Shown here piece after piece: positions 20,730 to 39,321 of a stretch of 64,000 nt of DNA. The stretch is taken from the NCBI GenBank assembly GCA_035576105.1, contig DATLXA010000067.1:205082-269081 (forward strand), in the 5' to 3' direction. The notes beneath the pieces were generated by a model, which saw only the letters and a list, made by a program, of their open reading frames with translations, was not told the origin of the DNA and did not search any database. The DNA is from Bacteriovoracaceae bacterium (lineage in GTDB: Bacteria > Bdellovibrionota > Bacteriovoracia > Bacteriovoracales > Bacteriovoracaceae). The position numbers and the translations under genes are program-made. How positions within the stretch are numbered: the stretch's first letter is position 1; the number at the start of each line of letters is the position of its first letter.

Positions 20730-21455
20730 TTACATCTTAAATTCTTCACCCAGGTAAAATTTCCGGGCGATCTCATTGTTAATAATCTCCGCCGGCGTCC
20801 CACTCACCAGGAGCTCTCCCCGGTTCATGATGTAGGCCCTGTCGACGATCCCCAGGGTCTCTCTCACGTTGTGGTCCGTGATCAGGACACCGATGTTTTT
20901 CTGCTTCAGTCGCTTGATGATCTGCTGGATGTCACTGACGGCCAGCGGATCGACTCCGGCGAAGGGTTCGTCCAATAGGACGAACTTGGGGTCCAGGGCA
21001 AGGGCTCTTGCGATCTCCACCCGTCGACGTTCTCCTCCGGAGAGCTCTCGTCCCTTGGACTTCCGGATGTGGTCAAGACCGAAATCCCGGATCAGGTCAT
21101 CCAGAGCGTTGATCCTCTCTTTCTCGGAGAGCTTCCGCACTTCCAGCACAGAAAAAATATTCTCTTCCACCGACAGTTCCCGGAAGACACTTGCTTCCTG
21201 CGGGAGGTAGCCGATCCCTTTCTTGGCCCGGACGTGAAGCGGATCCCGGGTCACGTCTTCGCCCATCAGACTGATCTTCCCGGCGTCTGTTTTCACCAGG
21301 CCAACCATCATATAAAAAGATGTCGTCTTCCCGGCACCGTTGGGTCCCAGGAGTCCCACAACTTCCCCGAGCTCGACGTCGATGCTCACGTCTTTCACGA
21401 CTTCCCTACCGTTGTAGGTCTTCTTGAGATTCGTGGCGAAAAAGGTCGCGGCCAT
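20730..21455 (-). CDS. lptB: LPS export ABC transporter ATP-binding protein
   Basis: GPNGAGKTT, YLPQEASVF, LSGGERRRVEIARAL, LLDEPFAGVDP, ITDHNVRETL. Confidence 0.97.
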   Translation of the reverse strand: MAATFFATNLKKTYNGREVVKDVSIDVELGEVVGLLGPNGAGKTTSFYMMVGLVKTDAGKISLMGEDVTRDPLHVRAKKGIGYLPQEASVFRELSVEENIFSVLEVRKLSEKERINALDDLIRDFGLDHIRKSKGRELSGGERRRVEIARALALDPKFVLLDEPFAGVDPLAVSDIQQIIKRLKQKNIGVLITDHNVRETLGIVDRAYIMNRGELLVSGTPAEIINNEIARKFYLGEEFKM

Positions 21456-21458
21456 GCA

Positions 21459-29028: not shown

Positions 29029-30756
29029 CTAGTAGCCACCGCCACGGGAAGAACCGAAGGACCGACTGCCCCCACGGCTCGGCCCGCTGCCGTATCCGCC
29101 GCGGCCACGGTAACCGCCGCCCCCCCCGCCGCTGCGGCTTCCGCCGCCGTATCCGATCGGCGCGGTGGCAAGCTCGATGCTCACTCTCCGGTTTCCGAAC
29201 ATCTCACCTTTGAGTCCCATGATGGCGTCGGTCGCCTGCACTGGAGCTTCTAGGAACGCGAACTTCTCTTTGGTTTCGATCCGACCGATGTCACGGCCCG
29301 GGACGCCGGTGGCTTCGGAGATGAACTTGATCAGGTCGCCCGAAGTCGCGCCGTCCATCGTTCCGAGATTGATGAAGAATCTCTGCATCCCAGCGGTGGC
29401 ACGCACTCCTCCTCTATCTCCTCCGGACCGGCTGGCCACGTCGATTTCCTGAGCTTTCTGGTAGCGCTTGAGAGTGTTTTCGAACATGAAGCCGTAGATC
29501 CCCTTCACCAGTTCTTCCTTTTCGATGTTGGCGAACTTGGCCTTGAAGGAATCATAGTGGAGTACTTCCTCGTCTTTAAACGCTTTGATGAGGTCCGTGA
29601 ACCTGGTCATGGATTTCACCAGAATCTTCTCCCGGATTTCGTTAACCACCGGGAGCTGGATCCGCTCGATCTTCGCCCTGGTGATCCGTTCGATCTGGCC
29701 GACTCTTGAGAGTTCGTTCGGCTCGACGATGGACAGAGATATCCCTTTCGAACCGCCGCGGCCAGTCCGGCCGATCCGGTGAACGTAGGCTTCGTTATCC
29801 TGTGGCAATCCGAAGTTGATGACGTGGGTGAGGTTGTTGACGTCGATCCCACGGGCCGCGACGTCGGTGCAGACCAGAAGTGTGATCTTCTTCTCTTTGA
29901 ACTTCTTCATGGTCATGTCTCTCGAGGCCTGGTCCATGTCTCCGTGGAGGGCGTCCGTCGGGTACCCTCGGGCGTTGAGCTCGTCGGTGAGTTCCTTGGC
30001 GCCGATCTTCGTCTTGGTGAAGATGATGGCGTACATGGCCTCGGAGAAATCCATGAACCGGCAGAGCGCTTCGATTTGATTTTCTCTCCGGACCACCACC
30101 AGTTTCTGGTCTACGGATTCTGCGGTGAGGGCTTTTTTGGTTACTCGCACGGTCACCGGATTCGAGAACTGCTCGTTGACCATATTAGTGATCGGACCCG
30201 GCATGGTCGCCGAGAACATCCAGATTCTTTTTTCCGGAACTTGGGCCAGGATCGCCGTCACGTCCTCGAAGAACCCCATGTCGAGCATCTCATCGGCTTC
30301 GTCCAGGATCACGAACTTGGTCGCTTCGAACCGGAGCACGCCGCGGTCGATGAGGTCCATCACCCGGCCCGGAGTTCCGGCGACGATCTGTGGCCGCTTC
30401 GATTTAAAATCTTTGATCTGCAGGCCCACCGAGGTTCCACCGTAGACGGCCATGGACCGGATCGGTTCGAAGCTCGAGAGCTTCTGGATCTCTTCGTTGA
30501 TCTGGTTGGCGAGCTCCCGGGTCGGAGCGAGGATGATCGCCTGCAGTGCCGGCGACTTGAAATCCAATTTTTCGAGGAGCGGGAGAACGAAAGCCGCGGT
30601 CTTCCCGGAGCCCGTCTGCGCCTGGCCGATGAAATCCACGTCTCCTTTCAGAAGGACCGGGATCGCCTGAACCTGGATCTCCGAGGGGGTCTCGTAACCC
30701 ATTTTGGTAATAGCTTTGAGTGAAGACTCTTTGAGTCCCAGTGCAAGAAATGACAT
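29029..30756 (-). CDS. deaD: DEAD-box RNA helicase (DeaD/CsdA type)
   Basis: AQTGSGKT, PTRELA, LDEADEML, SAT, HRIGRTGR; DbpA-type C-terminal domain and RGG tail. Confidence 0.88.
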   Translation of the reverse strand: MSFLALGLKESSLKAITKMGYETPSEIQVQAIPVLLKGDVDFIGQAQTGSGKTAAFVLPLLEKLDFKSPALQAIILAPTRELANQINEEIQKLSSFEPIRSMAVYGGTSVGLQIKDFKSKRPQIVAGTPGRVMDLIDRGVLRFEATKFVILDEADEMLDMGFFEDVTAILAQVPEKRIWMFSATMPGPITNMVNEQFSNPVTVRVTKKALTAESVDQKLVVVRRENQIEALCRFMDFSEAMYAIIFTKTKIGAKELTDELNARGYPTDALHGDMDQASRDMTMKKFKEKKITLLVCTDVAARGIDVNNLTHVINFGLPQDNEAYVHRIGRTGRGGSKGISLSIVEPNELSRVGQIERITRAKIERIQLPVVNEIREKILVKSMTRFTDLIKAFKDEEVLHYDSFKAKFANIEKEELVKGIYGFMFENTLKRYQKAQEIDVASRSGGDRGGVRATAGMQRFFINLGTMDGATSGDLIKFISEATGVPGRDIGRIETKEKFAFLEAPVQATDAIMGLKGEMFGNRRVSIELATAPIGYGGGSRSGGGGGGYRGRGGYGSGPSRGGSRSFGSSRGGGY

Positions 30757-31062
30757 ACGCTTTCTCCTTTAGAGAAAAATAAATATTATGCGCTTTTTTT
30801 GAATGTGAGAGACAGTGTCTATGGTCTCAACGACCCTGAGAACCACTTAGACCTAACGACAGAAGATCCGGGTGGGAACAAGGCTACAAAATGACGGCTG
30901 CACACTAGATAGCATATCTTGAGGTAGAATGTAAAACACGCGTTAAGAAGATTCTAACTTCAGACAAACACTCTAGTATTCAACGGCTTGAGGCCCAAGG
31001 GATATTAATTACCTAGGTAGAAATCTATTGTGCATTTTCAGAACTATCTTAAGCTTGTGGCT

Positions 31063-31368
31063 ATGAGACTTCATTTGATAAGACTCCTGGCCCTGATGAT
31101 CGCCATCACATCTACTGTTTATAAACGGCAGGGCACGGACTTATCTTTTGACCAAATGGAGACGCTCTCGCAGCTTCCGGTGTTTGATCTGCCGCTGTCC
31201 AGGGCAGTAGAAAGTAAACCGAGCTCGAAGCAAAACCTGGTGGTACTTGCGTTTAACCCCCTCGCCCTTCAGGCAGATGTCAGCTACCAGGTCCACGAGC
31301 ACCAGCACGACTACTACCTTCCTCTCTACCGGCTCCACAGGCAAAAAGAATACTTCCTTTTGATCTAA
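31063..31368 (+). CDS. Small hypothetical protein heading the transporter operon
   Basis: Hydrophobic N-terminus, HEHQH patch; 46 bp upstream of the symporter; start uncertain (31030 or 31063). Confidence 0.45.
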   Translation: MRLHLIRLLALMIAITSTVYKRQGTDLSFDQMETLSQLPVFDLPLSRAVESKPSSKQNLVVLAFNPLALQADVSYQVHEHQHDYYLPLYRLHRQKEYFLLI

Positions 31369-31414
31369 GTTGATCACTCTTAGAATTAAGAGAATCACTC
31401 ATCAAGGAAGATTT

Positions 31415-32920
31415 ATGCAACTCAGTCCAATGGACGTGGGCGTGGTCGTCGCCTACATTGTTCTTATATTTTTTATCGCCTTCAACGCGAATCTCTTCAT
31501 GCGCAAGCACTACCTGGCGAAGAGAAAGGACGGTCTGAAGGCTATCGAGAATCACTATCTCGCGGGGAGAAGCATCACGTTCCCAGAAGCGCTCCTCTCC
31601 ATCATCGCCACCGAGTTTTCGGCGATGGCCTTCCTGATCCTTCCGTCGTACGTGTACTTCGAAAACCTCAGCTACGTCCGATTCATTCTCGGAGCGTGCC
31701 TCAGCCGTTGGCTCATTTCCTATTACTTCATCCCGATGTTGTACGGCAAAGGGGTCACCATCTTCGAGATCCTCGCCCGAGGGATCCACAACTACCCTGA
31801 AATCCGCAAAGATGGACAGAACGGTAAAAAAACGTTCGCCATGTTCTACATCTTCACTAAGATCGTGGGAGTGAGTGTAAAACTGCTTGGTGGAGCGATC
31901 CTGATCTCCGAGTTCTTCGACACCCCTCTCTTCGGGTCCATCGTGATGATCGCGCTGATGACCTACCTCTATATTATCTTGGGAGGGCTCAAAGCCGTGG
32001 TCCGGACGGACATGCTCCAGGCCACCATCTTCATCCTCGGCGGGGTCATGGCCCACTACGCTGTTGGAAAGATGAGTAACCTGTCCTGGGGTGAACTGGT
32101 GAGCTTCGGTTACGATCATGGGAAATTCAGTCTCTGGAACAAAGAGATAGGTCCCTTGAGTTTTTTCTACGGCATCATCGCCGGCATCGCCTACGACGCT
32201 TCAACTCACGGGGTGGACCAGGACCTGATCCAAAAATTCCTCGGGGCCAAAGATGTCAAGACCGCTCGGCGTGCGCTCGGTTGGTCGGCCCTCTGTTCGC
32301 TGATGGTGAACATTCTCTTCCTGAGCCTCGGCGTGATCATCTGGTCTTACTACACCAAGCATGGCCAGCCGATCCCGAAGCCGGAGAAGATCTTCTCGTA
32401 CCTGATCGAGAACCATTTTCCGACGCCGCTCAAGGGGTTGATGGTCGCGAGCATCCTCGCCGCCTGTATGTCCACACTCGACTCCTCGATCAACGCCATG
32501 AGCTCGGTGTTCTGGAACGACCTGATGGCGAGCCAGCGCTCCAAGCTCTTCCGGGTGTACATCAATCTAGATAACTTCATCATCACCGTCTCCATCGTGG
32601 TATTCGCCCACCTTATCTCACTGGTGCCAGGGGCGATGAAGCTCGGGATCCACTTTGCGTATCTCTCGACGGCGCCGCTGCTCTCTTTCTTCCTGTGCCG
32701 GATGCTGCTCTCAAAGTACATCAAGATTACCTTCTCTTCGACCTTGATCGTACTCAGTGTCTTCACTTGTTTCCTGGGAATGGCCTTGAATCATTTCCGC
32801 TTCGGATTCAATCCACAGCTGACGATCATGGTCGGGATCATCACCACCATTTCTTTCATGTGGTTGTATTCGCTGATCACCAACTTCTCAAATACCCCAA
32901 AAGAGAATACCTATGAGTAG
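31415..32920 (+). CDS. Sodium:solute symporter (SSS/SLC5 family)
   Basis: HYLAGRS, SIIATEFSA, GGLKAVVRTDMLQ, DQDLIQKFL, ILAACMSTLDSSINA; many TMs. Confidence 0.92.
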   Translation: MQLSPMDVGVVVAYIVLIFFIAFNANLFMRKHYLAKRKDGLKAIENHYLAGRSITFPEALLSIIATEFSAMAFLILPSYVYFENLSYVRFILGACLSRWLISYYFIPMLYGKGVTIFEILARGIHNYPEIRKDGQNGKKTFAMFYIFTKIVGVSVKLLGGAILISEFFDTPLFGSIVMIALMTYLYIILGGLKAVVRTDMLQATIFILGGVMAHYAVGKMSNLSWGELVSFGYDHGKFSLWNKEIGPLSFFYGIIAGIAYDASTHGVDQDLIQKFLGAKDVKTARRALGWSALCSLMVNILFLSLGVIIWSYYTKHGQPIPKPEKIFSYLIENHFPTPLKGLMVASILAACMSTLDSSINAMSSVFWNDLMASQRSKLFRVYINLDNFIITVSIVVFAHLISLVPGAMKLGIHFAYLSTAPLLSFFLCRMLLSKYIKITFSSTLIVLSVFTCFLGMALNHFRFGFNPQLTIMVGIITTISFMWLYSLITNFSNTPKENTYE

Positions 32921-34631
32921 AAAACTCCAGTTCCATCTAAAGTCAGATGACCTGATAAAATCGGGAGAGCGGTTCCGGGATCTCCTGAAACTGATGACCA
33001 AGCCGGAGACCGGCTTCATCAAGGCCATCGTCATCAACACCCTCGCCGTTAGCTTCTTGAGCCTCGGCGTTCCGCTTGCCATTCAGATGATCATCAATAA
33101 CATCGGCGTCCGCACTATGACCCAGCCGCTGGTGGTTTTATGCCTGCTGCTGTTCTTCATCCTCTCCTGCAGCGGCACGCTCCAGGCCATCCAGACCTAC
33201 ACCGTCGAGATCCTTCAGCGCAGACTCTTCGTGCGCTACGGGTTGATCATCGGAGAGCGACTCACCTCGTTCCAGGACAAGTACTACAAGGAGTCGAACT
33301 CTCCGGATCTGATAAACCGCTACTTCGACATCATGATCATACAGTCGAGTATGGTGACCTTCTTCGTTAATGGCTTCGGTTTCATCATCCAGTTTCTCAT
33401 CGGGTTCACTCTCTTGGCCTTCTACCACCCGTACTTCCTGGGATTCGCGGGCTTGATGGGACTGTTCCTTTTTCTCAACTGGATGCTCTTCGGGCCCGAC
33501 GGGGTGAAGGCCGGGTCTCCGGAGGCTGACGGAAAGTACAATGTGGTCAGCTGGGTCGAGGAGATGAGCCGGGTGCGCAACCTCTTCACCTCAGATAACG
33601 GAAAGGATTTCTCATCGGCCAAGATCAACACGCTCTTCAACCGGTGGCTGCAGGTCCGGAGCAACCTCTTTAACTTTCAGTTCCGACAGCACATCGGACT
33701 CCAGATTTTCGGCGTGGTCATGAACGTCATTCTACTCGGCATGGGAGGCTTCCTGGTTCTCAAGGGGGAGCTTAGCGCCGGGCAACTGGTCGCGGCCGCA
33801 CTTGTCGTCAATAGCATCATCGCAGGACTTCCCAATCTCCAGAACTTCTTCTTCAGCGTCTACAACTACAGCACCGCTCTCGACATGGTGGCACGCTTCT
33901 ACGACTACCCGATCGAACCGTCCACCGAAGGGCTGGCCACGCCAAAGAAGTACGACTTTAGTTTCCACAACCTGACTTTCGAGCCCAACTACAAGTTCAA
34001 CTTCGAGTTTAAGGATCAGACCAAGAACCTCATCTTCGTCAAGAGCTTCTCGTCCATGGATCTGATCTACAACTCGCTGATGGGATTTAGCGAATACAAG
34101 GAAGGCCACGTGAATTACGACGGGCTGATGCTTGAAGACATCGACCTCGGGGAGATCCGGAACCACATCCAGATCATCAAGACTAACCAGTTTTTCTCCG
34201 GAACCGTGCTTGAGAACCTGACCGGAATCGGGAACCGGAAGAACTTCACCCTGACCGAAATCTACCAGATCCTGGAGAGGGTGGGACTTCTGGAGAACAT
34301 CGAGAAGCTGCCGCTCAAGCTCCAGACCGTCATCAAGCCCAATGGCTTCCCCCTGACGATGTCCCAGAACCTGGCACTTCAGGTGGCCCGGGCCCTGCTC
34401 CAGCCTCCGAAGATTCTACTGGTGACCCCGGACTTCGAACTGATCTCGACTTTCAAGCGAAAGCTCATCTACCAGGAACTCATCAGTCCGGACAGTAAGT
34501 GGACGCTGCTTTTCTTCACCCAACGGTTCTACAAGGGAGGCTTCGACCGCCGACTGGTGCTCGAGCGCTCGGCACAGAGAGTGCTCTCCGGTGAAGCAGA
34601 ACTACTCAAGGAGATTGAAAACCATGGCTGA
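32913..34631 (+). CDS. Type I secretion-type ABC half-transporter with degenerate NBD
   Basis: ABC transmembrane domain (GELSAGQLVAA); NBD-like C-terminus with FSGTVLEN and VARALL but no intact Walker A/B, signature or H-loop. Confidence 0.8.
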   Translation: MSRKLQFHLKSDDLIKSGERFRDLLKLMTKPETGFIKAIVINTLAVSFLSLGVPLAIQMIINNIGVRTMTQPLVVLCLLLFFILSCSGTLQAIQTYTVEILQRRLFVRYGLIIGERLTSFQDKYYKESNSPDLINRYFDIMIIQSSMVTFFVNGFGFIIQFLIGFTLLAFYHPYFLGFAGLMGLFLFLNWMLFGPDGVKAGSPEADGKYNVVSWVEEMSRVRNLFTSDNGKDFSSAKINTLFNRWLQVRSNLFNFQFRQHIGLQIFGVVMNVILLGMGGFLVLKGELSAGQLVAAALVVNSIIAGLPNLQNFFFSVYNYSTALDMVARFYDYPIEPSTEGLATPKKYDFSFHNLTFEPNYKFNFEFKDQTKNLIFVKSFSSMDLIYNSLMGFSEYKEGHVNYDGLMLEDIDLGEIRNHIQIIKTNQFFSGTVLENLTGIGNRKNFTLTEIYQILERVGLLENIEKLPLKLQTVIKPNGFPLTMSQNLALQVARALLQPPKILLVTPDFELISTFKRKLIYQELISPDSKWTLLFFTQRFYKGGFDRRLVLERSAQRVLSGEAELLKEIENHG

Positions 34632-35724
34632 GCTACAGAAAAAAAAGACCGATCCGAACACCGCCTACGTGGTGGTGCTCGACACGCAAGAAACCTACGC
34701 GCAGAATGCCCGGGAAATGCTCCATATCCATGACCTGCCAGAAACGTCGAAGTTGATCACCCGGTTGGTGGTAGTGTTCTTCCTTTTCATGCTGATCTTC
34801 CTGATCGCCATCCCCTGGCAGCAGACCTCCGACGGGGCCGGTAAGGTCCTCGCCTACCGGCCCCAGGACCGGGTTCAGAACATCCACGCCACCGTCAACG
34901 GAAGGATTAAACAGTGGTTCGTGAAAGAAGGTTCCTTCGTGAAGATGGGCGACCCCATCATGGAGATCATCGACATCGACCCCAATTATATGGCACGTCT
35001 AGAGGTCGAGAGCAACGCGGTCAAGAGCCAGTACGACGCCGCGGTGGCGGTGGTGAACACAGCGAAGTACGACTACGACCGCCAGAAAGACCTCTATCAA
35101 AATGGTATCAGTTCCCGCAAAGACATGGAGCAGGCGACCATCGCATACAAGAACGCCCAGTCCTCCGAAGCCCAGGCCCTTTCCAATTACACGCAGATCC
35201 AATCGAAGGTCACCCGCCAGCAGAGTCAGCAGGTGAACGCACCTTCCGACGGGACCATCGTGCGCCTGCTCATCGGCACCAGCTCGGTAGTGGTGAACCA
35301 GGGCCAGGTGGTCGCGGTCTTCGTTCCTTTGAGCGACGAACTCTCGGCGCAGATCTTCGTCAAAGGAAATGACTTGCCGCTGGTGCACGACGGAAGAAAA
35401 GTACGCCTCCAGTTCGAAGGCTGGCCCGCGATTCAGTTCTCCGGCTGGCCTTCGGTCGCAGTTGGAACTTTCAGCGGCGTGGTCAGTTTCGTCGACCAGA
35501 CGGCCAACAGTGACGGCCTCTTCCGGGTCATAGTCGTACCCGAGAAAGGGCAGAAGTGGCCCGCCTCCAGATACATCCGGCAAGGGACGAGGGTCAACGG
35601 CTGGATTCTCCTGAACAAGGTCTCTCTGGGCTACGAGCTGTGGCGCCAGTTCAACGGCTTCCCGCCGTCCCTCGAGGCGGCTCCGGGACTTCTAGAGGTC
35701 CCTAACCAAGACATCCCGGAATAA
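34624..35724 (+). CDS. HlyD-family membrane fusion protein
   Basis: TM, GRIKQWFVKEGSFVKMGD lipoyl half-motif, helical hairpin, GRKVRLQFEGWP. Confidence 0.92.
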   Translation: MAELQKKKTDPNTAYVVVLDTQETYAQNAREMLHIHDLPETSKLITRLVVVFFLFMLIFLIAIPWQQTSDGAGKVLAYRPQDRVQNIHATVNGRIKQWFVKEGSFVKMGDPIMEIIDIDPNYMARLEVESNAVKSQYDAAVAVVNTAKYDYDRQKDLYQNGISSRKDMEQATIAYKNAQSSEAQALSNYTQIQSKVTRQQSQQVNAPSDGTIVRLLIGTSSVVVNQGQVVAVFVPLSDELSAQIFVKGNDLPLVHDGRKVRLQFEGWPAIQFSGWPSVAVGTFSGVVSFVDQTANSDGLFRVIVVPEKGQKWPASRYIRQGTRVNGWILLNKVSLGYELWRQFNGFPPSLEAAPGLLEVPNQDIPE

Positions 35725-35726
35725 CT

Positions 35727-37115
35727 ATGAATTACATTTTATTATTTTTGATAACTATTCCTGCCTACGGAGCTCTCTCTGCTTCTAAGGTCAAAGATAG
35801 TGCTTTGAAACATCATCCGTCGATACTTGCGGCACTTGAAAAACTGCGGGCGGGAGAAGAAACCGTTATCAGTGCGAGGGGTGCCTTTGATGCTAGAATT
35901 GTCTCAGACTATAAGAGACAAACAAAACATGACTGGAACACAACTCTATCTCGGACTCAGCTCGAGAAACCGCTACGAGTAGCGAATTCGAAGATCTATG
36001 CTGGAGCTGAGCAGATCAGCAATCCATCGGGGTTCCTTGCTCCGATCTACAACTCCGGGAACCCGATTACACAAACAGGAAACTATTCAATCCTCGGGCT
36101 CCGAGCGTCCTTGTGGAAAAATCTCCTGCTTGATCCTGACCGGGCCGCTCTCGCAGAAGCTAAATACGATGCTAGGATAGCCAGAGCCGAAAAAGAATTA
36201 ACCGTCTTGGACATAGGAAGGTATGGCCAACTTGCGTACTGGGAATGGGTAACGGCTCAAAGGGTAAAAAATACTTATGAAGAACTTCTCCGCAACGGTG
36301 AAATGAGAAATGATTACTTGGTTACTCGCAGTAAGAAAGGTGACATTGCTCAAATCTTAGTAACAGAGAATGAACAGTACGTCGCGAGCCGTAAAGGGTC
36401 TGTTCAAGCCGCGAAAGAGAGACTCCTTCGTGCACAGTTTTCTCTTTCATTATTCCACCGTGATGAGCATGGTGATCCCATTATTCCCAGTTCCACAGAG
36501 AGCTTTGAAGATTACCCAAGCAATCTTGCTGACCTTTTGGCCAATCTTGATCTTAATTCCAACATTGATGAATTGATGAAAAAACGTCCGGACATGCAGA
36601 ACCTAGCTTTGAACGTAAACAAGACTGAAGTTTACCTCGAACTCGCCAAACAAGACCTGAAGCCTCAGGTTGATCTCACGACGGAATATTTTAGAAGAAC
36701 GTTAGCTCATCCGAACATACCTCGTGATTATTTGATGGTGATTGCACAGGTGAACATCCCCATCGAAAGGAACTTAGGCAACGGTAACATCGCGGCTGCT
36801 CGCGCCCGCCGGATGGTGGCACAGAAAGAAATGAGTTTTGGGCAGCAGTCTTATAAGTTTGAAATCATGGCCCTTCGGCAAGCTCTCCAGCTGCAGTTAG
36901 AGCAAGTGGTTCAGTCTGAGATCGTATTCTCAAAGTCAAAAGAACTCGTCGTCTCAGAAACTTATAAATTGAAAACTGGCGGCGGAAACTTGTTCTTGGT
37001 GAACATCCGAGAAGAGGCTCAGGCGAGGGCGCAAGCGTCTTTCCACGAAGCACGTCTTACTTTCATGAATACGTTGCTGAGCTATCAGTCACTGGTGAGC
37101 ACCGTAAATAAGTAA
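35727..37115 (+). CDS. TolC-family outer membrane efflux protein
   Basis: Signal peptide, ALKHHPSI, RPDMQ, AKQDLKPQVDL, YKLKTGGGNLFLVNIRE. Confidence 0.9.
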   Translation: MNYILLFLITIPAYGALSASKVKDSALKHHPSILAALEKLRAGEETVISARGAFDARIVSDYKRQTKHDWNTTLSRTQLEKPLRVANSKIYAGAEQISNPSGFLAPIYNSGNPITQTGNYSILGLRASLWKNLLLDPDRAALAEAKYDARIARAEKELTVLDIGRYGQLAYWEWVTAQRVKNTYEELLRNGEMRNDYLVTRSKKGDIAQILVTENEQYVASRKGSVQAAKERLLRAQFSLSLFHRDEHGDPIIPSSTESFEDYPSNLADLLANLDLNSNIDELMKKRPDMQNLALNVNKTEVYLELAKQDLKPQVDLTTEYFRRTLAHPNIPRDYLMVIAQVNIPIERNLGNGNIAAARARRMVAQKEMSFGQQSYKFEIMALRQALQLQLEQVVQSEIVFSKSKELVVSETYKLKTGGGNLFLVNIREEAQARAQASFHEARLTFMNTLLSYQSLVSTVNK

Positions 37116-37143
37116 AAAAAAAGGCACCGGAAGGTGCCTTTTT
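37116..37143. terminator. Bidirectional Rho-independent terminator
   Basis: A run-GGCACC-ggaa-GGTGCC-T run between convergent genes. Confidence 0.88.
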
Positions 37144-37164
37144 AATAAGTTGAATTAAAAAAAA

Positions 37165-38094
37165 CTATTTGATCGAGTAAGAAATCCACGCTCCCACGTA
37201 CACCGAGTTCGTCGAGAACGGAACGTCGTTAACGAAAGCTTCGACGTACGGGTAGATGTTTAGCTTCTTAGTCACATCTTTACTGATCCCGGTCATCACC
37301 CCTTGCCAGACGTCCTTGAACACAGGATTTTTCCCGTTGATGGACTTGAATCTTTTATTATTCTCAAGGATGTGGTTGTAGTAGGTGACCCATTTCGTGG
37401 TGTCATCCAAAGTAATCTGGAGCATCGGGGAAGTAGATATTCTCAAACGAGAGATATTATATCTGTCTTCATAGATCCAACTCCGGACCTGGCCAAACAT
37501 ACCCACCTGGACCGTTTTATTGAAATCATACGTAGGTAAGAAGGCTAGCTCTAACTGGTGCGTGAGCTGGCCAAAACCAGCGTTGTTACTGTTGCGGCTT
37601 GCACGGCTGGTCGGAAGTCTGAGTCCAGGACGGATCCAGAGATTGAATTTTTTATCTTCTGAGGAAGCAACCACTCCCTGGAAGCCTACCAAGAAATCTT
37701 CCAGTGCGATCAAAGACCTGTCCTCAGGTTCCTGCATATCGACCGGGTGGGCAAGCGGAGTCATCCATCGTGGGTTGAACACGAAGTTCATCTTCGCACC
37801 GAAGTTATAGTTGAAGCTGACCTGGTTCCACATGTTGGTCGGCCAGGTGTCGCGGTTTGTTCCGCCGGAGAATTCCGGAGAGAGTGCTCCGTTTTCCCAC
37901 TCTCCGTCACTCATGTCTTTAAGTGTGGGAGTGGTGAGAACTCCGAAATAGCTGATCTTCAGGCGATCATAGAACTTTTGAAAATCGTTGCGAGTTTCGA
38001 GAACTTCGGTATTAGAAACTTTTTTCGTTTCGGCTGACCATGCAATGGTTGATAAAAAAGATAAAGCGATCAAAAGTGTAATAGCTCTTTTCAT
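37165..38094 (-). CDS. Hypothetical outer-membrane beta-barrel protein
   Basis: Signal peptide, alternating aromatic/hydrophobic strands, C-terminal YVGAWISYSIK. Confidence 0.65.
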   Translation of the reverse strand: MKRAITLLIALSFLSTIAWSAETKKVSNTEVLETRNDFQKFYDRLKISYFGVLTTPTLKDMSDGEWENGALSPEFSGGTNRDTWPTNMWNQVSFNYNFGAKMNFVFNPRWMTPLAHPVDMQEPEDRSLIALEDFLVGFQGVVASSEDKKFNLWIRPGLRLPTSRASRNSNNAGFGQLTHQLELAFLPTYDFNKTVQVGMFGQVRSWIYEDRYNISRLRISTSPMLQITLDDTTKWVTYYNHILENNKRFKSINGKNPVFKDVWQGVMTGISKDVTKKLNIYPYVEAFVNDVPFSTNSVYVGAWISYSIK

Positions 38095-38250
38095 AATGGT
38101 ATTGCCTTCCTTACAATTAATAAAAAAATTTCAATCCTTTGATTCTAAGCAAAGTTGTCTAGAATACAAAGTACTATTCACTAGTTCTCATGTACTTTAT
38201 TAAAAGACAACATCTTTTTCGTGGTGCAATAATGACACCGAAGGATTTTT

Positions 38251-38496
38251 ATGAGCTCACAGAAACAACAAATTCTTACTTCTTTCTTTGAAAAACTGGA
38301 AAAGATGGAGTCAGAAGACATGATGGCCATGGTCGAAAAACATCTCAAAGATGATGACGTGGAATTGTTTGTGCAACACATTGAAGCGTTCTACGGGATC
38401 AGTGACGATGAAGAGCTTGGGATGCTGGCACAGTTAATGGTGACCGGTTATCTGGCCGCCAGGTACGAAGACAGTTTGAAGAGTGTTGAACATTGA
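38251..38496 (+). CDS. Small acidic hypothetical protein
   Basis: AGGA SD; helical D/E-rich 81-aa ORF. Confidence 0.65.
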   Translation: MSSQKQQILTSFFEKLEKMESEDMMAMVEKHLKDDDVELFVQHIEAFYGISDDEELGMLAQLMVTGYLAARYEDSLKSVEH

Positions 38497-38502
38497 GCCC
38501 GA

Positions 38503-39321
38503 CTAAGAATTAAGATTGTACTGAATCTGGATCCAGAATCTTCTCATCGCCGCCAGCTCCTCCAAGTAGAACCACGTCGACTGAACCTGCGCCAGGTCTT
38601 TCGCGTTCTGGGCCAGGACCCTGAAGAGTTTCTTCAAGGTGTCGTTGATCACACCGTACTCAAAAAGGTCATTGAGCTCTTCCGCCAGAAACTGCTCGCA
38701 GTCACTGAAGCGGACTCGGTTGACTTCGTTCTGGATGTTCATGGCCAGGCCCGCGGCACTCGTCAGGGACTCCAAGAGCTGGAAGTTCCGGATCGCTAGT
38801 TCCTTATCTCCCAGTGGCCCGAGCTTCACTGCTTCGTCGGTGAGTCCGATGGACATGGTGAACGAGATGTTAAACCCATTCTCATTTTTTTTAAGCCACC
38901 AACTAAACCCGGGGTCCGAGAGGTTACACATCCGCTCTTCGTGGATGGGGAAGCGGCGGTTGTTGAGCTGGTCGTGGATGATCTCGGCGTGCAGAGGATT
39001 CTCCAACGGGAAGAACCGGAGGTTCTTGGGAGCGAAGGGTTCCTCGTTATCAAAGAGCCGCAGCTCCGGGTACGACTTCGGGTCCTTCAGGATGCGACTG
39101 TAATCCTCTCGGATGTTCTGAGAAACCTTGGTGCGGATCACGAAGATCGAGGGAGTCCGTTGGATATGGTAGATCAGGCCCGCGGAGGCCGGGAGCTCGG
39201 CGTTCTCATCTTTGCGCTGCTTCTCGTGAAAAACCAGCGGAAGCTCCGAGTCTTCGGTGTGAGTGTAGTTTTCGTCGAGGTGCTTGAACGTTTCTTGTAC
39301 TAAGAATTCGATCTCATCCAT
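38503..39321 (-). CDS. Hypothetical protein, possible degenerate GIY-YIG/UvrC-N-like
   Basis: LPASAGLIY...SQNIRE...HAEIIH...LGPLG echoes the UvrC N-terminal layout. Confidence 0.6.
   Translation of the reverse strand: MDEIEFLVQETFKHLDENYTHTEDSELPLVFHEKQRKDENAELPASAGLIYHIQRTPSIFVIRTKVSQNIREDYSRILKDPKSYPELRLFDNEEPFAPKNLRFFPLENPLHAEIIHDQLNNRRFPIHEERMCNLSDPGFSWWLKKNENGFNISFTMSIGLTDEAVKLGPLGDKELAIRNFQLLESLTSAAGLAMNIQNEVNRVRFSDCEQFLAEELNDLFEYGVINDTLKKLFRVLAQNAKDLAQVQSTWFYLEELAAMRRFWIQIQYNLNS

Follow-up and report, generated by a model that had tools for sequence, protein, structure and literature searches.

An ABC exporter-like protein without ATPase motifs is conserved in a sodium symporter–membrane fusion protein–outer membrane factor operon of Bacteriovoracaceae

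How is an envelope-spanning export machine energised when its only ATP-binding cassette (ABC) subunit has lost the motifs that use ATP? This question is raised by an operon within a 64,000-nucleotide stretch of DNA (the window) from a Bacteriovoracaceae bacterium (assembly GCA_035576105.1, contig DATLXA010000067.1, positions 205,082 to 269,081). A sequence-only reading of the window had described four linked genes, encoding a protein of the sodium/solute symporter (SSS) family, an ABC-like protein, an HlyD-like membrane fusion protein (MFP) and an outer membrane factor (OMF) of the TolC type, joined by two 8-nt overlaps and a 2-nt gap and ending at one terminator. The open reading frames (ORFs) and the junction letters agree with that description of the four genes, but not with the size of the module, to which a conserved gene immediately upstream adds a fifth member. 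Positions 31063–37143 thus form a tightly packed five-gene operon in the order small-SSS-ABC-MFP-OMF with a single terminator:

31063–31368, + strand: small conserved gene; open in 18 orthologous loci, no Pfam match
31415–32920, + strand: SSS symporter gene; ORF call, Pfam SSF
32913–34631, + strand: ABC-like gene; ORF call, full-length exporter alignment
34624–35724, + strand: MFP gene; ORF call, Pfam HlyD_3
35727–37115, + strand: OMF gene; ORF call, Pfam OEP
37118–37143, no strand: bidirectional intrinsic-terminator-like hairpin; 11-bp stem between A/T runs

The SSS and ABC-like genes overlap by 8 nt (ATGAGTAG), as do the ABC-like and MFP genes (ATGGCTGA), and 2 nt separate the MFP gene from the OMF gene (TAACTATG). 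An AAGGAAG ribosome-binding site lies upstream of the SSS ATG. The hairpin is GC-rich with T-runs on both sides and is common to the operon and the convergent gene at 37165–38094. Co-transcription is predicted from this gene layout; among sequencing runs, the region is present only in that of the source soil-metagenome DNA. An Rfam scan of positions 30600–38400 returned no riboswitch or leader, and its single sub-threshold small RNA match lies on the terminator.

The ABC-like protein has the fold of an ABC exporter but not its catalytic motifs. It is 572 residues long, with a transmembrane domain (TMD) at approximately residues 1–335 and a nucleotide-binding domain (NBD)-like region at approximately 340–572. 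Aligning the NBD to Pfam ABC_tran, a check proposed along with the initial description, gave 22.6 bits, under the gathering threshold of 25; ABC_membrane scored 16.6 bits (threshold 28), and the best NCBIfam score was 95 bits on a bacteriocin-exporter model with a cutoff of 524. In full-length HMMER alignments, residues 28–545 align with ComA (8hf7, E = 3e-20), a peptidase-containing ABC transporter (PCAT), and the protein also aligns end to end with HlyB, PCAT and MsbA-type exporters. The top Foldseek match is PCAT1 (E = 6e-22), followed by ABCB10, HlyB and MsbA (E ∼1e-21). The AlphaFold2 (AF2) model of the monomer, built with 29 sequences, has a predicted local distance difference test score (pLDDT) of 80–90 in the NBD and is poor in the TMD; taking this model together with that of the MFP, confidence is limited to the NBD and the MFP hairpin, and the TM-scores against PDB entries are low (0.35–0.4).

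The ComA alignment places each of the four stretches that the sequence-only reading had singled out on a catalytic motif:

34038–34061, + strand: Walker A remnant VKSFSSMD (residues 376–383), aligned on ComA GISGSGKT; no GxxGxGK[ST]
34353–34367, + strand: signature remnant LTMSQ (residues 481–485), aligned on ISGGQ; not LSGGQ
34413–34448, + strand: Walker B and D-loop remnant ILLVTP-DFELIS, from the ComA alignment; the D-E pair is replaced by T-P
34512–34526, + strand: H-loop remnant FFTQR (residues 534–538), aligned on FIAHR; His replaced by Gln

ILLVTP (501–506) occupies the hhhhDE positions of Walker B and DFELIS (507–512) the stretch that follows, including the D-loop, while the position of the Q-loop Gln is taken by T424. 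The neighboring scaffold sequences FSGTVLEN and VARALL, which had been described as retained, are present. Measured against the features of an ABC exporter, the protein therefore has the fold and lacks the Walker A, signature, Walker B, D-loop, H-loop and Q-loop residues. Judged by its sequence, it is a conserved pseudo-ATPase without any of the residue classes needed for ATP binding and hydrolysis, and neither activity is predicted. Because the ABC "motor" has lost every ATP-using motif, the export machine is presumably not run on ATP. The 64 kb of the window hold no second ABC exporter, the sole other ABC match being a 242-residue ORF (20733–21458) with NBD motifs only.

The replacements are conserved. 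A protein search returned 604 relatives, and the best 120 of these 604 are full-length proteins, 67–86% identical to the window protein, from Peredibacter and other Bacteriovoracaceae. Throughout these 120 orthologues the substituting residues KSFSS and LLVTPDxE..IS are nearly invariant and TLLFFTQR is invariant, and conservation of the signature remnant is limited to SQ. The Walker A motif is missing from 140 of 140 proteins in the clade of ABC-like proteins that is linked to SSS genes (the SSS clade, below), and dead motifs are also found in relatives at 25–52% identity. Intact motifs in orthologues had been named as the sign of strain-specific decay; no such decay was found, since not one orthologue has intact motifs and the loss extends to relatives with as little as 25% identity. 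Synonymous sites are saturated in most pairs of orthologues, leaving few usable for estimates of the nonsynonymous to synonymous rate ratio (ω); in three less saturated pairs (synonymous divergence, dS, 0.8–1.0), ω for the TMD versus the NBD was 0.065 versus 0.18, 0.04 versus 0.10, and 0.005 versus 0.02, and in other, noisier pairs, some of them with locus L001, NBD values rose up to 0.54. The NBD-like domain is under purifying selection, 2–4 times more relaxed than that on the TMD.

Two further observations concern the orthologues. One of them (L007, 8001–9716) carries an in-frame TAG at codon 121, which may mark a pseudogene or an assembly error. In addition, residues 376–381, 501–512 and 531–538, the substitutes for the ATP site, are themselves nearly invariant within the Bacteriovoracaceae, which hints that the former nucleotide pocket may be under a new constraint, for example from a ligand, a dimer contact or a partner surface.

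The linkage to the SSS gene is equally persistent. Across 25 species-level genome loci the order SSS-ABC-MFP(-OMF) is kept wherever the contig allows, and all 23 orthologous loci with upstream sequence have the SSS gene. Overall, the SSS gene is restricted to loci whose ABC proteins are at least 37% identical to that of the window. Four arrangements are seen: small-SSS-ABC-MFP-OMF in the window and, amid unrelated flanks, in L029; ABC-MFP-OMF-SSS, with genes overlapping by 4 nt, in L026 and L027; MFP-OMF-SSS-ABC in L036; and SSS-ABC-MFP-[opposite-strand gene]-OMF in L113. The first three convert into one another by cyclic permutation. GC content in SSS-linked loci ranges from 0.33 to 0.62, and the SSS and ABC proteins have diverged in parallel (41% and 31% identity for SSS; 52% and 43% for ABC). 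In a neighbor-joining tree the SSS-linked ABC proteins form one clade within a fully degenerate, short-form group; their nearest relatives lacking an SSS gene, L028 (34% identity), L031 (29%) and L112 (Porphyrobacter), are plain ABC-MFP-OMF operons with equally dead motifs. The distribution indicates that the SSS gene was gained once and retained across several operon rearrangements. The five genes probably encode one co-inherited envelope-spanning transport module. The survey of synteny in Bdellovibrionota that had been suggested thus finds the SSS linkage conserved, and it persists through the four arrangements. Because dead ABC-MFP-OMF operons are widespread without it, the SSS protein is not the general power source of such systems.

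What the partner proteins look like bears on how the module could work. The SSS protein (501 residues) scores 97.6 bits on Pfam SSF against a gathering threshold of 22.8, and its nearest solved structures are SMCT1, NIS, SMVT and vSGLT (E = 3e-18 to 3e-15). The hallmark motifs AGRSITF, GGLKAVVRTD and STLDSSINA are present, the last aligning with STVSSSINA of SMCT1; its Ser-Ser pair in transmembrane helix (TM) 8 we take to be the Na2 site, by the site of vSGLT. All of its scores against the NCBIfam equivalogs PutP, PanF, PRK10484 and VC_2705 are far under the cutoffs. From these motifs the protein looks like a functional symporter, and SSS proteins normally import. The MFP (366 residues) has an N-terminal TM anchor and matches Pfam HlyD_3 (50.5 bits), Biotin_lipoyl_2 and HlyD_D23, as well as TIGR01730 (88.7 bits). 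It is the best-conserved component between lineages, at 46–59% identity. Its AF2 model, poor overall (pLDDT 55.7), has an N-terminal tail of ∼40 residues, a TM helix at 40–62, and hairpin helices at 122–159 and 165–202 with pLDDT ∼90, or ∼38 residues per helix. We judge a hairpin of that length to be closer to those of AcrA and MacA than to that of HlyD. The OMF (462 residues) is TolC-like, with a signal peptide and 70 bits on Pfam OEP in two stretches. An OMF orthologue is found in 19 of the 25 genome loci; four contigs end earlier, and the gene is truly absent from L003 and L024, which presumably rely on an OMF encoded elsewhere.

The small upstream gene is counted as the fifth member of the module. 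Its product has ∼101 residues from the ATG at 31063 (the mechanical ORF begins at GTG 31030), with an N-terminal hydrophobic signal or anchor, a conserved IAQxFIPIV and a C-terminal YLPLYxLxRQKEYFLLI, and it has no significant match in Pfam. The 18 orthologous loci have an equally long open frame in the syntenic place, at 26–46% identity, and L029 and L036 have comparable small ORFs ahead of the module (105 and 122 residues, respectively), each with a hydrophobic segment at the N terminus. As a secreted substrate, the protein is a weak candidate only.

The module belongs to a much wider set of ABC-MFP-OMF operons with a single ABC gene. When 1.84 billion representatives, clustered at 50% identity, were searched exhaustively with HMMER, 1,074 clusters scored at E ≤ 1e-30, far better than canonical exporters would score. 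A few relatives lie at 34–52% identity and hundreds follow near 30%. No protein of the wider family attains an NCBIfam cutoff. Motif retention was counted in the 151 nearest sequences (the window protein and 150 representatives): Walker A, the Walker B DE, LSxGQ and the H-loop His occur together in 11, none of the four occurs in 50, and the commonest Walker B ending is DG (45/151). By name, the sources include Myxococcales, Gemmataceae, Pirellulales and Sphingomonadales. Members from cultured Erythrobacter and Porphyrobacter have dead motifs, and the Prokaryotic Genome Annotation Pipeline (PGAP) labels them "ABC transporter transmembrane domain-containing protein." These comparisons indicate that the ABC-like protein of the window descends from a large, unnamed family with patchy loss of the ATPase motifs.

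A scan of metagenomes with the family motif [QE]L[ST][LVA]GQLVA[AS] gave at least 570 confirmed matches, from which 71 broad-family loci were retained. The ABC-MFP-OMF order is present in 51 of the 71; 19 are stopped by the contig end, and L078 has room after the MFP gene but no OMF gene. Among the matches listed, none of the 71 family loci has a second ABC gene, nor does any of the 25 orthologous loci. A recurrent large neighboring gene that could encode a substrate was found neither in the 71 loci nor in the window. Long members of the family (P0127, P0131, P0144, P0163, P0195 and P0157) carry an N-terminal extension of ∼180–220 residues that looks C39-like and leads into a linker rich in His and Gly, for example HGHGHHGHAH; many of the relatives near 30% identity have this extension. 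In P0127, P0131 and P0144, a Pfam scan detected no domain at the N terminus, and another relative, P0319, has a precomputed PF03412 match.

Conservation within the family points away from catalysis. In an alignment of 20 fully degenerate relatives (25–52% identity), nearly all invariant positions fall in the TMD. They include predicted periplasmic turns (L51/P54/Q58, Q71-P72, Y171-H172-P173, and L287..G290-Q291-L292-V293-A294 within LSxGQLVAA287–295) and, in intracellular loop 2 (ICL2), K208, Y209 and W214; the NBD contributes a few conserved Gly, Pro and Ala residues only. We read this pattern as an MFP-facing surface and TMD-NBD packing, not catalysis.

One position of the TMD separates the SSS clade from the rest of the family:

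33780–33800, + strand: TM5-TM6 turn motif GQLVAAA; its last residue, A296, replaces the family-wide TM6 Glu

The family motif is GQLVAAE, and its cavity-lining Glu, at the position of residue 296 of the window protein, lies seven residues into TM6. Its counterpart in ABCB1 is the leading Phe of the TM6 stretch TVFF, and in ComA it is an Asn. Among family proteins that do not belong to the SSS clade, 233 of 243 have the Glu, as do all 74 SSS-less loci, both those that retain Walker A and those that have lost it. Inside the clade it is found in 0 of 140 proteins and in 0 of 8 SSS-linked loci, which have A, F, T or S instead. The Glu is likewise missing from four short contigs of this clade that end before the place of the SSS gene, and the closest SSS-less sister, P0126, keeps it. 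Further charged positions lost in the SSS clade are E112, K145, E239, K250, H252 and E314; in the window protein, none of the predicted TM cores contains an acidic residue, and there is no glutamate ladder of the SbmA kind. The loss of the Glu with the gain of the SSS gene is the most specific clue to mechanism: the only conserved intramembrane carboxylate vanishes exactly where a Na+-coupled transporter joins the operon.

Gene neighborhoods in the wider family also suggest a link to ions. Of 54 assessable loci, 13 have a LysR regulator adjoining the core, in most cases no more than 500 nt away and with varying position and orientation. These NhaR-type regulators are found in L041, L044, L047, L055, L071, L078, L080, L087, L088, L091, L099, L102 and L103, and three that were tested against the NCBIfam NhaR equivalog NF008284 (cutoff 219) scored 257, 223 and 224 bits. 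There is no recurrent NhaA gene beside the NhaR-bearing loci and no NhaR-like regulator in the window. These regulators suggest Na+- or alkaline-responsive control of the wider family.

Other neighbors were noted. An ORF of ∼115 residues that looks HPF/RaiA-like stands beside the family operon in L041 (1372–1749), L044 (6840–7208), L059 (4135–4515), L070 (4107–4535) and three more loci, often between the NhaR-type gene and the ABC gene; the single copy scanned (L041) has no NCBIfam match. Genes for β-carbonic anhydrase, SulP, an SbtA fragment and a DUF2309/DabA-like protein lie near L028 (5626–7814), L031 (6584–6793), L081, L089, L107, L048 and L105, a weak association with carbon and anion genes of 2–4 loci each, and ArsR-type regulators recur weakly near family loci. 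Around the SSS-linked module itself, genes of outer-membrane β-barrel type are flanking in four lineages (window 37165–38094, − strand; L029 12237–12776; L026 6293–7441; and GCA_041447055). Two of them match BBP2 or Porin_O_P, and those of the four lineages share no mutual homology in BLASTP. The window neighbors at 37165–38094, 38251–38496 and 38503–39321 have nothing significant in Pfam. Upstream, at 30761–30900 and adjoining a DEAD-box helicase gene (29029–30756, − strand), the DNA is 70–80% identical in at least 15 orthologous loci; this stretch, which has no Rfam match, is probably the 5′ leader of the helicase gene.

The explanation that we tentatively prefer is that the operon encodes an ATP-independent trans-envelope module with the Na+ symporter as an obligate partner, probably for ion coupling, or as its inner-membrane leg. 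The ABC-like protein would form a homodimer whose conserved periplasmic turns dock an MFP hexamer, and the hexamer would reach a TolC-like trimer to complete a duct from the inner membrane to the outside. The dead NBDs would serve as a cytoplasmic scaffold or gate, not as a motor, and solute movement would be driven by an ion gradient instead of ATP. In the rest of the family the ion-coupling role may reside in the TM6 carboxylate; in the SSS clade the Na+-coupled SSS protein would have taken over that role or would form the inner-membrane leg. The SSS protein is favored as coupling partner because the TM6 Glu is gone in its clade and it is the only ion-coupled protein in the module. The small upstream protein would be an accessory membrane or periplasmic subunit, and the cargo is probably a small solute, not an RTX (repeats-in-toxin)-type protein. 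ABC-exporter-like TMDs are able to use an ion gradient in SbmA/BacA and, reportedly, in LmrA without its NBD (PMC8442886), and in view of these precedents ion coupling is plausible in the family, the TM6 Glu being a candidate coupling site.

Several points weigh against this explanation. Physical or energetic coupling between the SSS protein and the duct is hypothetical, and, as SSS proteins are normally importers, the way in which a Na+ symporter could drive export is not self-evident. The majority of ATPase-dead members (L028, L031 and L112 among them) have no SSS gene, so the SSS protein is dispensable for the basic function of a dead ABC-MFP-OMF system, and the proposal does not account for what powers these members. 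The loss of the Glu and the gain of the SSS gene are a single evolutionary event, without statistical weight. Because the Glu is also present in motif-intact members, its ligand may be a substrate of cationic nature instead of a coupling ion, and self-coupling to H+ or Na+ is unsupported in the SSS clade because the TM cores have no acidic residue. Both AF2 models are of poor quality except in the NBD and the MFP hairpin. A bolder version would make the module a new energisation class, in which a LeuT-fold Na+ symporter powers a TolC-MFP duct, or forms its inner-membrane leg, on a pseudo-ABC scaffold, within a family of ∼1,000 clusters that shifted from ATP to ion coupling by way of the TM6 Glu, the motifs decaying afterwards. 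This version we regard as possible but doubtful.

Some rival explanations keep the transport function and change the energetics. In the main rival, the SSS protein and the duct share one solute without energetic coupling: the SSS protein would import or recapture with Na+ what the conduit releases, or the two would work the other way round as a safety valve, with a dead ABC dimer that is a gated facilitator or channel and flux down the electrochemical gradient of the solute. The conserved operon is as compatible with this reading as with energetic coupling, the SSS protein resembles an ordinary symporter nearest the anion and vitamin carriers SMCT1, NIS and SMVT, dead SSS-less members indicate that the conduit can work alone, and CFTR is a precedent for an ABC-fold channel. 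We nevertheless think it rather unlikely, as the loss of the TM6 Glu with the gain of the SSS gene is left unexplained unless the substrate changed, and a passive duct to the outside needs tight gating, for which no ligand is evident. Alternatively, an ATPase-competent half-transporter encoded elsewhere could heterodimerise with the ABC-like protein and power a conventional exporter. Known degenerate chains keep Walker A. In the window protein the signature and the D-loop are dead too, and therefore either composite site would be non-consensus; no second ABC gene occurs in the 71 family loci, the 25 orthologous loci or the window, and a pattern scan gave one copy per genome. Exporters with one degenerate site, such as TM287/288, TmrAB and BmrCD, are nonetheless well known (PMC7756269; PMC8277102); we rate such a partner as improbable.

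Others loosen the tie to the SSS protein or to transport. That the SSS gene is an unrelated passenger in an operon whose dead-ABC/MFP/OMF unit works independently would agree with the wider family, which functions without it, and the whole Bacteriovoracaceae neighborhood is syntenic, such that the linkage could be simple inheritance. We give this little credence: the linkage outlasts four rearrangements, unrelated flanks and GC contents from 0.33 to 0.62, the start and stop codons overlap, and SSS and ABC have diverged in parallel. An equally improbable reading is that the complex is no longer a transporter but a structural, tethering or signalling assembly with the ABC fold as an anchor. It draws on the complete loss of catalysis with the fold kept, on the strongest conservation being at the periplasmic MFP-facing turns, and on the former ATP-site residues that are conserved in orthologues, suggesting a new interaction surface; it is opposed by the retention of a TolC-like channel and an MFP hairpin of normal length, by family-wide constraint on a cavity-lining TM6 position, and by the association with a genuine transporter and with Na+-responsive regulators, which speaks for transport physiology. 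That the NBD is merely decaying, as a pseudogene or by strain-specific loss, has next to no probability in our view. The in-frame stop codon of L007 would fit, but replacements are conserved in at least 140 proteins, ORFs are full-length throughout, and ω of the NBD is 0.02–0.18 in the cleanest pairs; decay was rejected on the conserved replacements in the 120 orthologues together with the low ω.

Comparison with known systems places the preferred explanation, an ion-driven module on an ABC-like scaffold, among established designs without matching any of them. Type I secretion systems (T1SS) and PCAT systems (HlyB-HlyD-TolC, PrtDEF, PCAT1 and ComA) have the same gene set, an ABC half-transporter, a TM-anchored MFP and a TolC-like OMF. 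They differ in that the module lacks the ATPase motifs, its SSS clade lacks a C39 or C39-like domain, and it adds the SSS gene and the small gene. The 64-kb window contains no T1SS substrate with RTX repeats or a C-terminal signal, in keeping with the earlier remark that no RTX-type substrate is nearby. Type I secretion itself, the frame in which the sequence-only reading had set the operon, is not shown, as the search for a substrate gene was negative and the hairpin of the MFP is short. Heterodimeric exporters (TM287/288, TmrAB, BmrCD and LmrCD) likewise have conserved non-consensus NBD motifs; however, they are encoded by two adjacent genes, and their degenerate chain keeps Walker A and binds ATP, leaving one consensus site, whereas the module has a single gene with all motifs dead. 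Because every motif of its chain is dead, neither a homodimer nor a heterodimer could contain a consensus site.

SbmA/BacA, of the SbmA-like peptide transporters (SLiPTs), and NBD-less LmrA are cases in which a TMD of ABC-exporter type is driven by an ion gradient and needs no ATP (PMC8442886; PMC13316013). SLiPTs are peptide importers that lack both an NBD and coupling helices and possess a glutamate ladder, whereas the module keeps an NBD-like domain and ICL2 and sits in an MFP/OMF operon. Compared with that ladder, the SSS clade has no intramembrane carboxylate and the wider family a single TM6 Glu. In EmrAB-TolC, of the major facilitator superfamily (MFS), and AcrAB-TolC, of the resistance-nodulation-division (RND) superfamily, an N-terminally anchored MFP and an OMF join an ion-driven inner-membrane transporter, which would be the mode of the module under the explanation that we prefer; unlike them, the module also has an ABC-fold protein. 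To our knowledge, no SSS (LeuT-fold) partner has been described for a tripartite system. As energised inner-membrane partners of tripartite systems, a comprehensive 2021 review gives ABC, RND and MFS only (PMC8277102). Among SSS transporters of the SLC5A8/NIS/SMVT/PanF type, the module protein shares the hallmark motifs and is nearest to SMCT1, NIS and SMVT. SSS genes that follow a gene for a small membrane protein are familiar from YjcH-ActP, YhdT-PanF and DUF4212 with the VC_2705 family. Unlike such pairs, the SSS protein of the module is in no NCBIfam equivalog, its small protein is in no known family, and both stand in an MFP/OMF operon. Literature searches returned no report of a fully ATPase-dead ABC protein in an MFP/OMF operon, nor of an SSS protein linked to one.

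Tripartite efflux and type I secretion are, by the textbook, ATP-, RND- or MFS-driven, and Na+-driven trans-envelope transport, if it were demonstrated for this module, would be categorically new. A conserved family whose sole "motor" appears incapable of using ATP asks what the minimal energy input for trans-envelope transport is. It also raises the questions of what pseudo-NBDs are retained for and whether the membrane domains of the ABC fold switch naturally between primary and secondary transport, an idea based so far on SbmA and truncated LmrA. The SSS clade offers a natural experiment, in which one carboxylate was lost where one Na+ symporter was gained, and the question is open to direct testing, since Peredibacter isolates and cultured Erythrobacter and Porphyrobacter have members of the family. 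Finally, the module is universal in the predatory Bacteriovoracaceae, and its cargo may therefore matter for the physiology of these predators.

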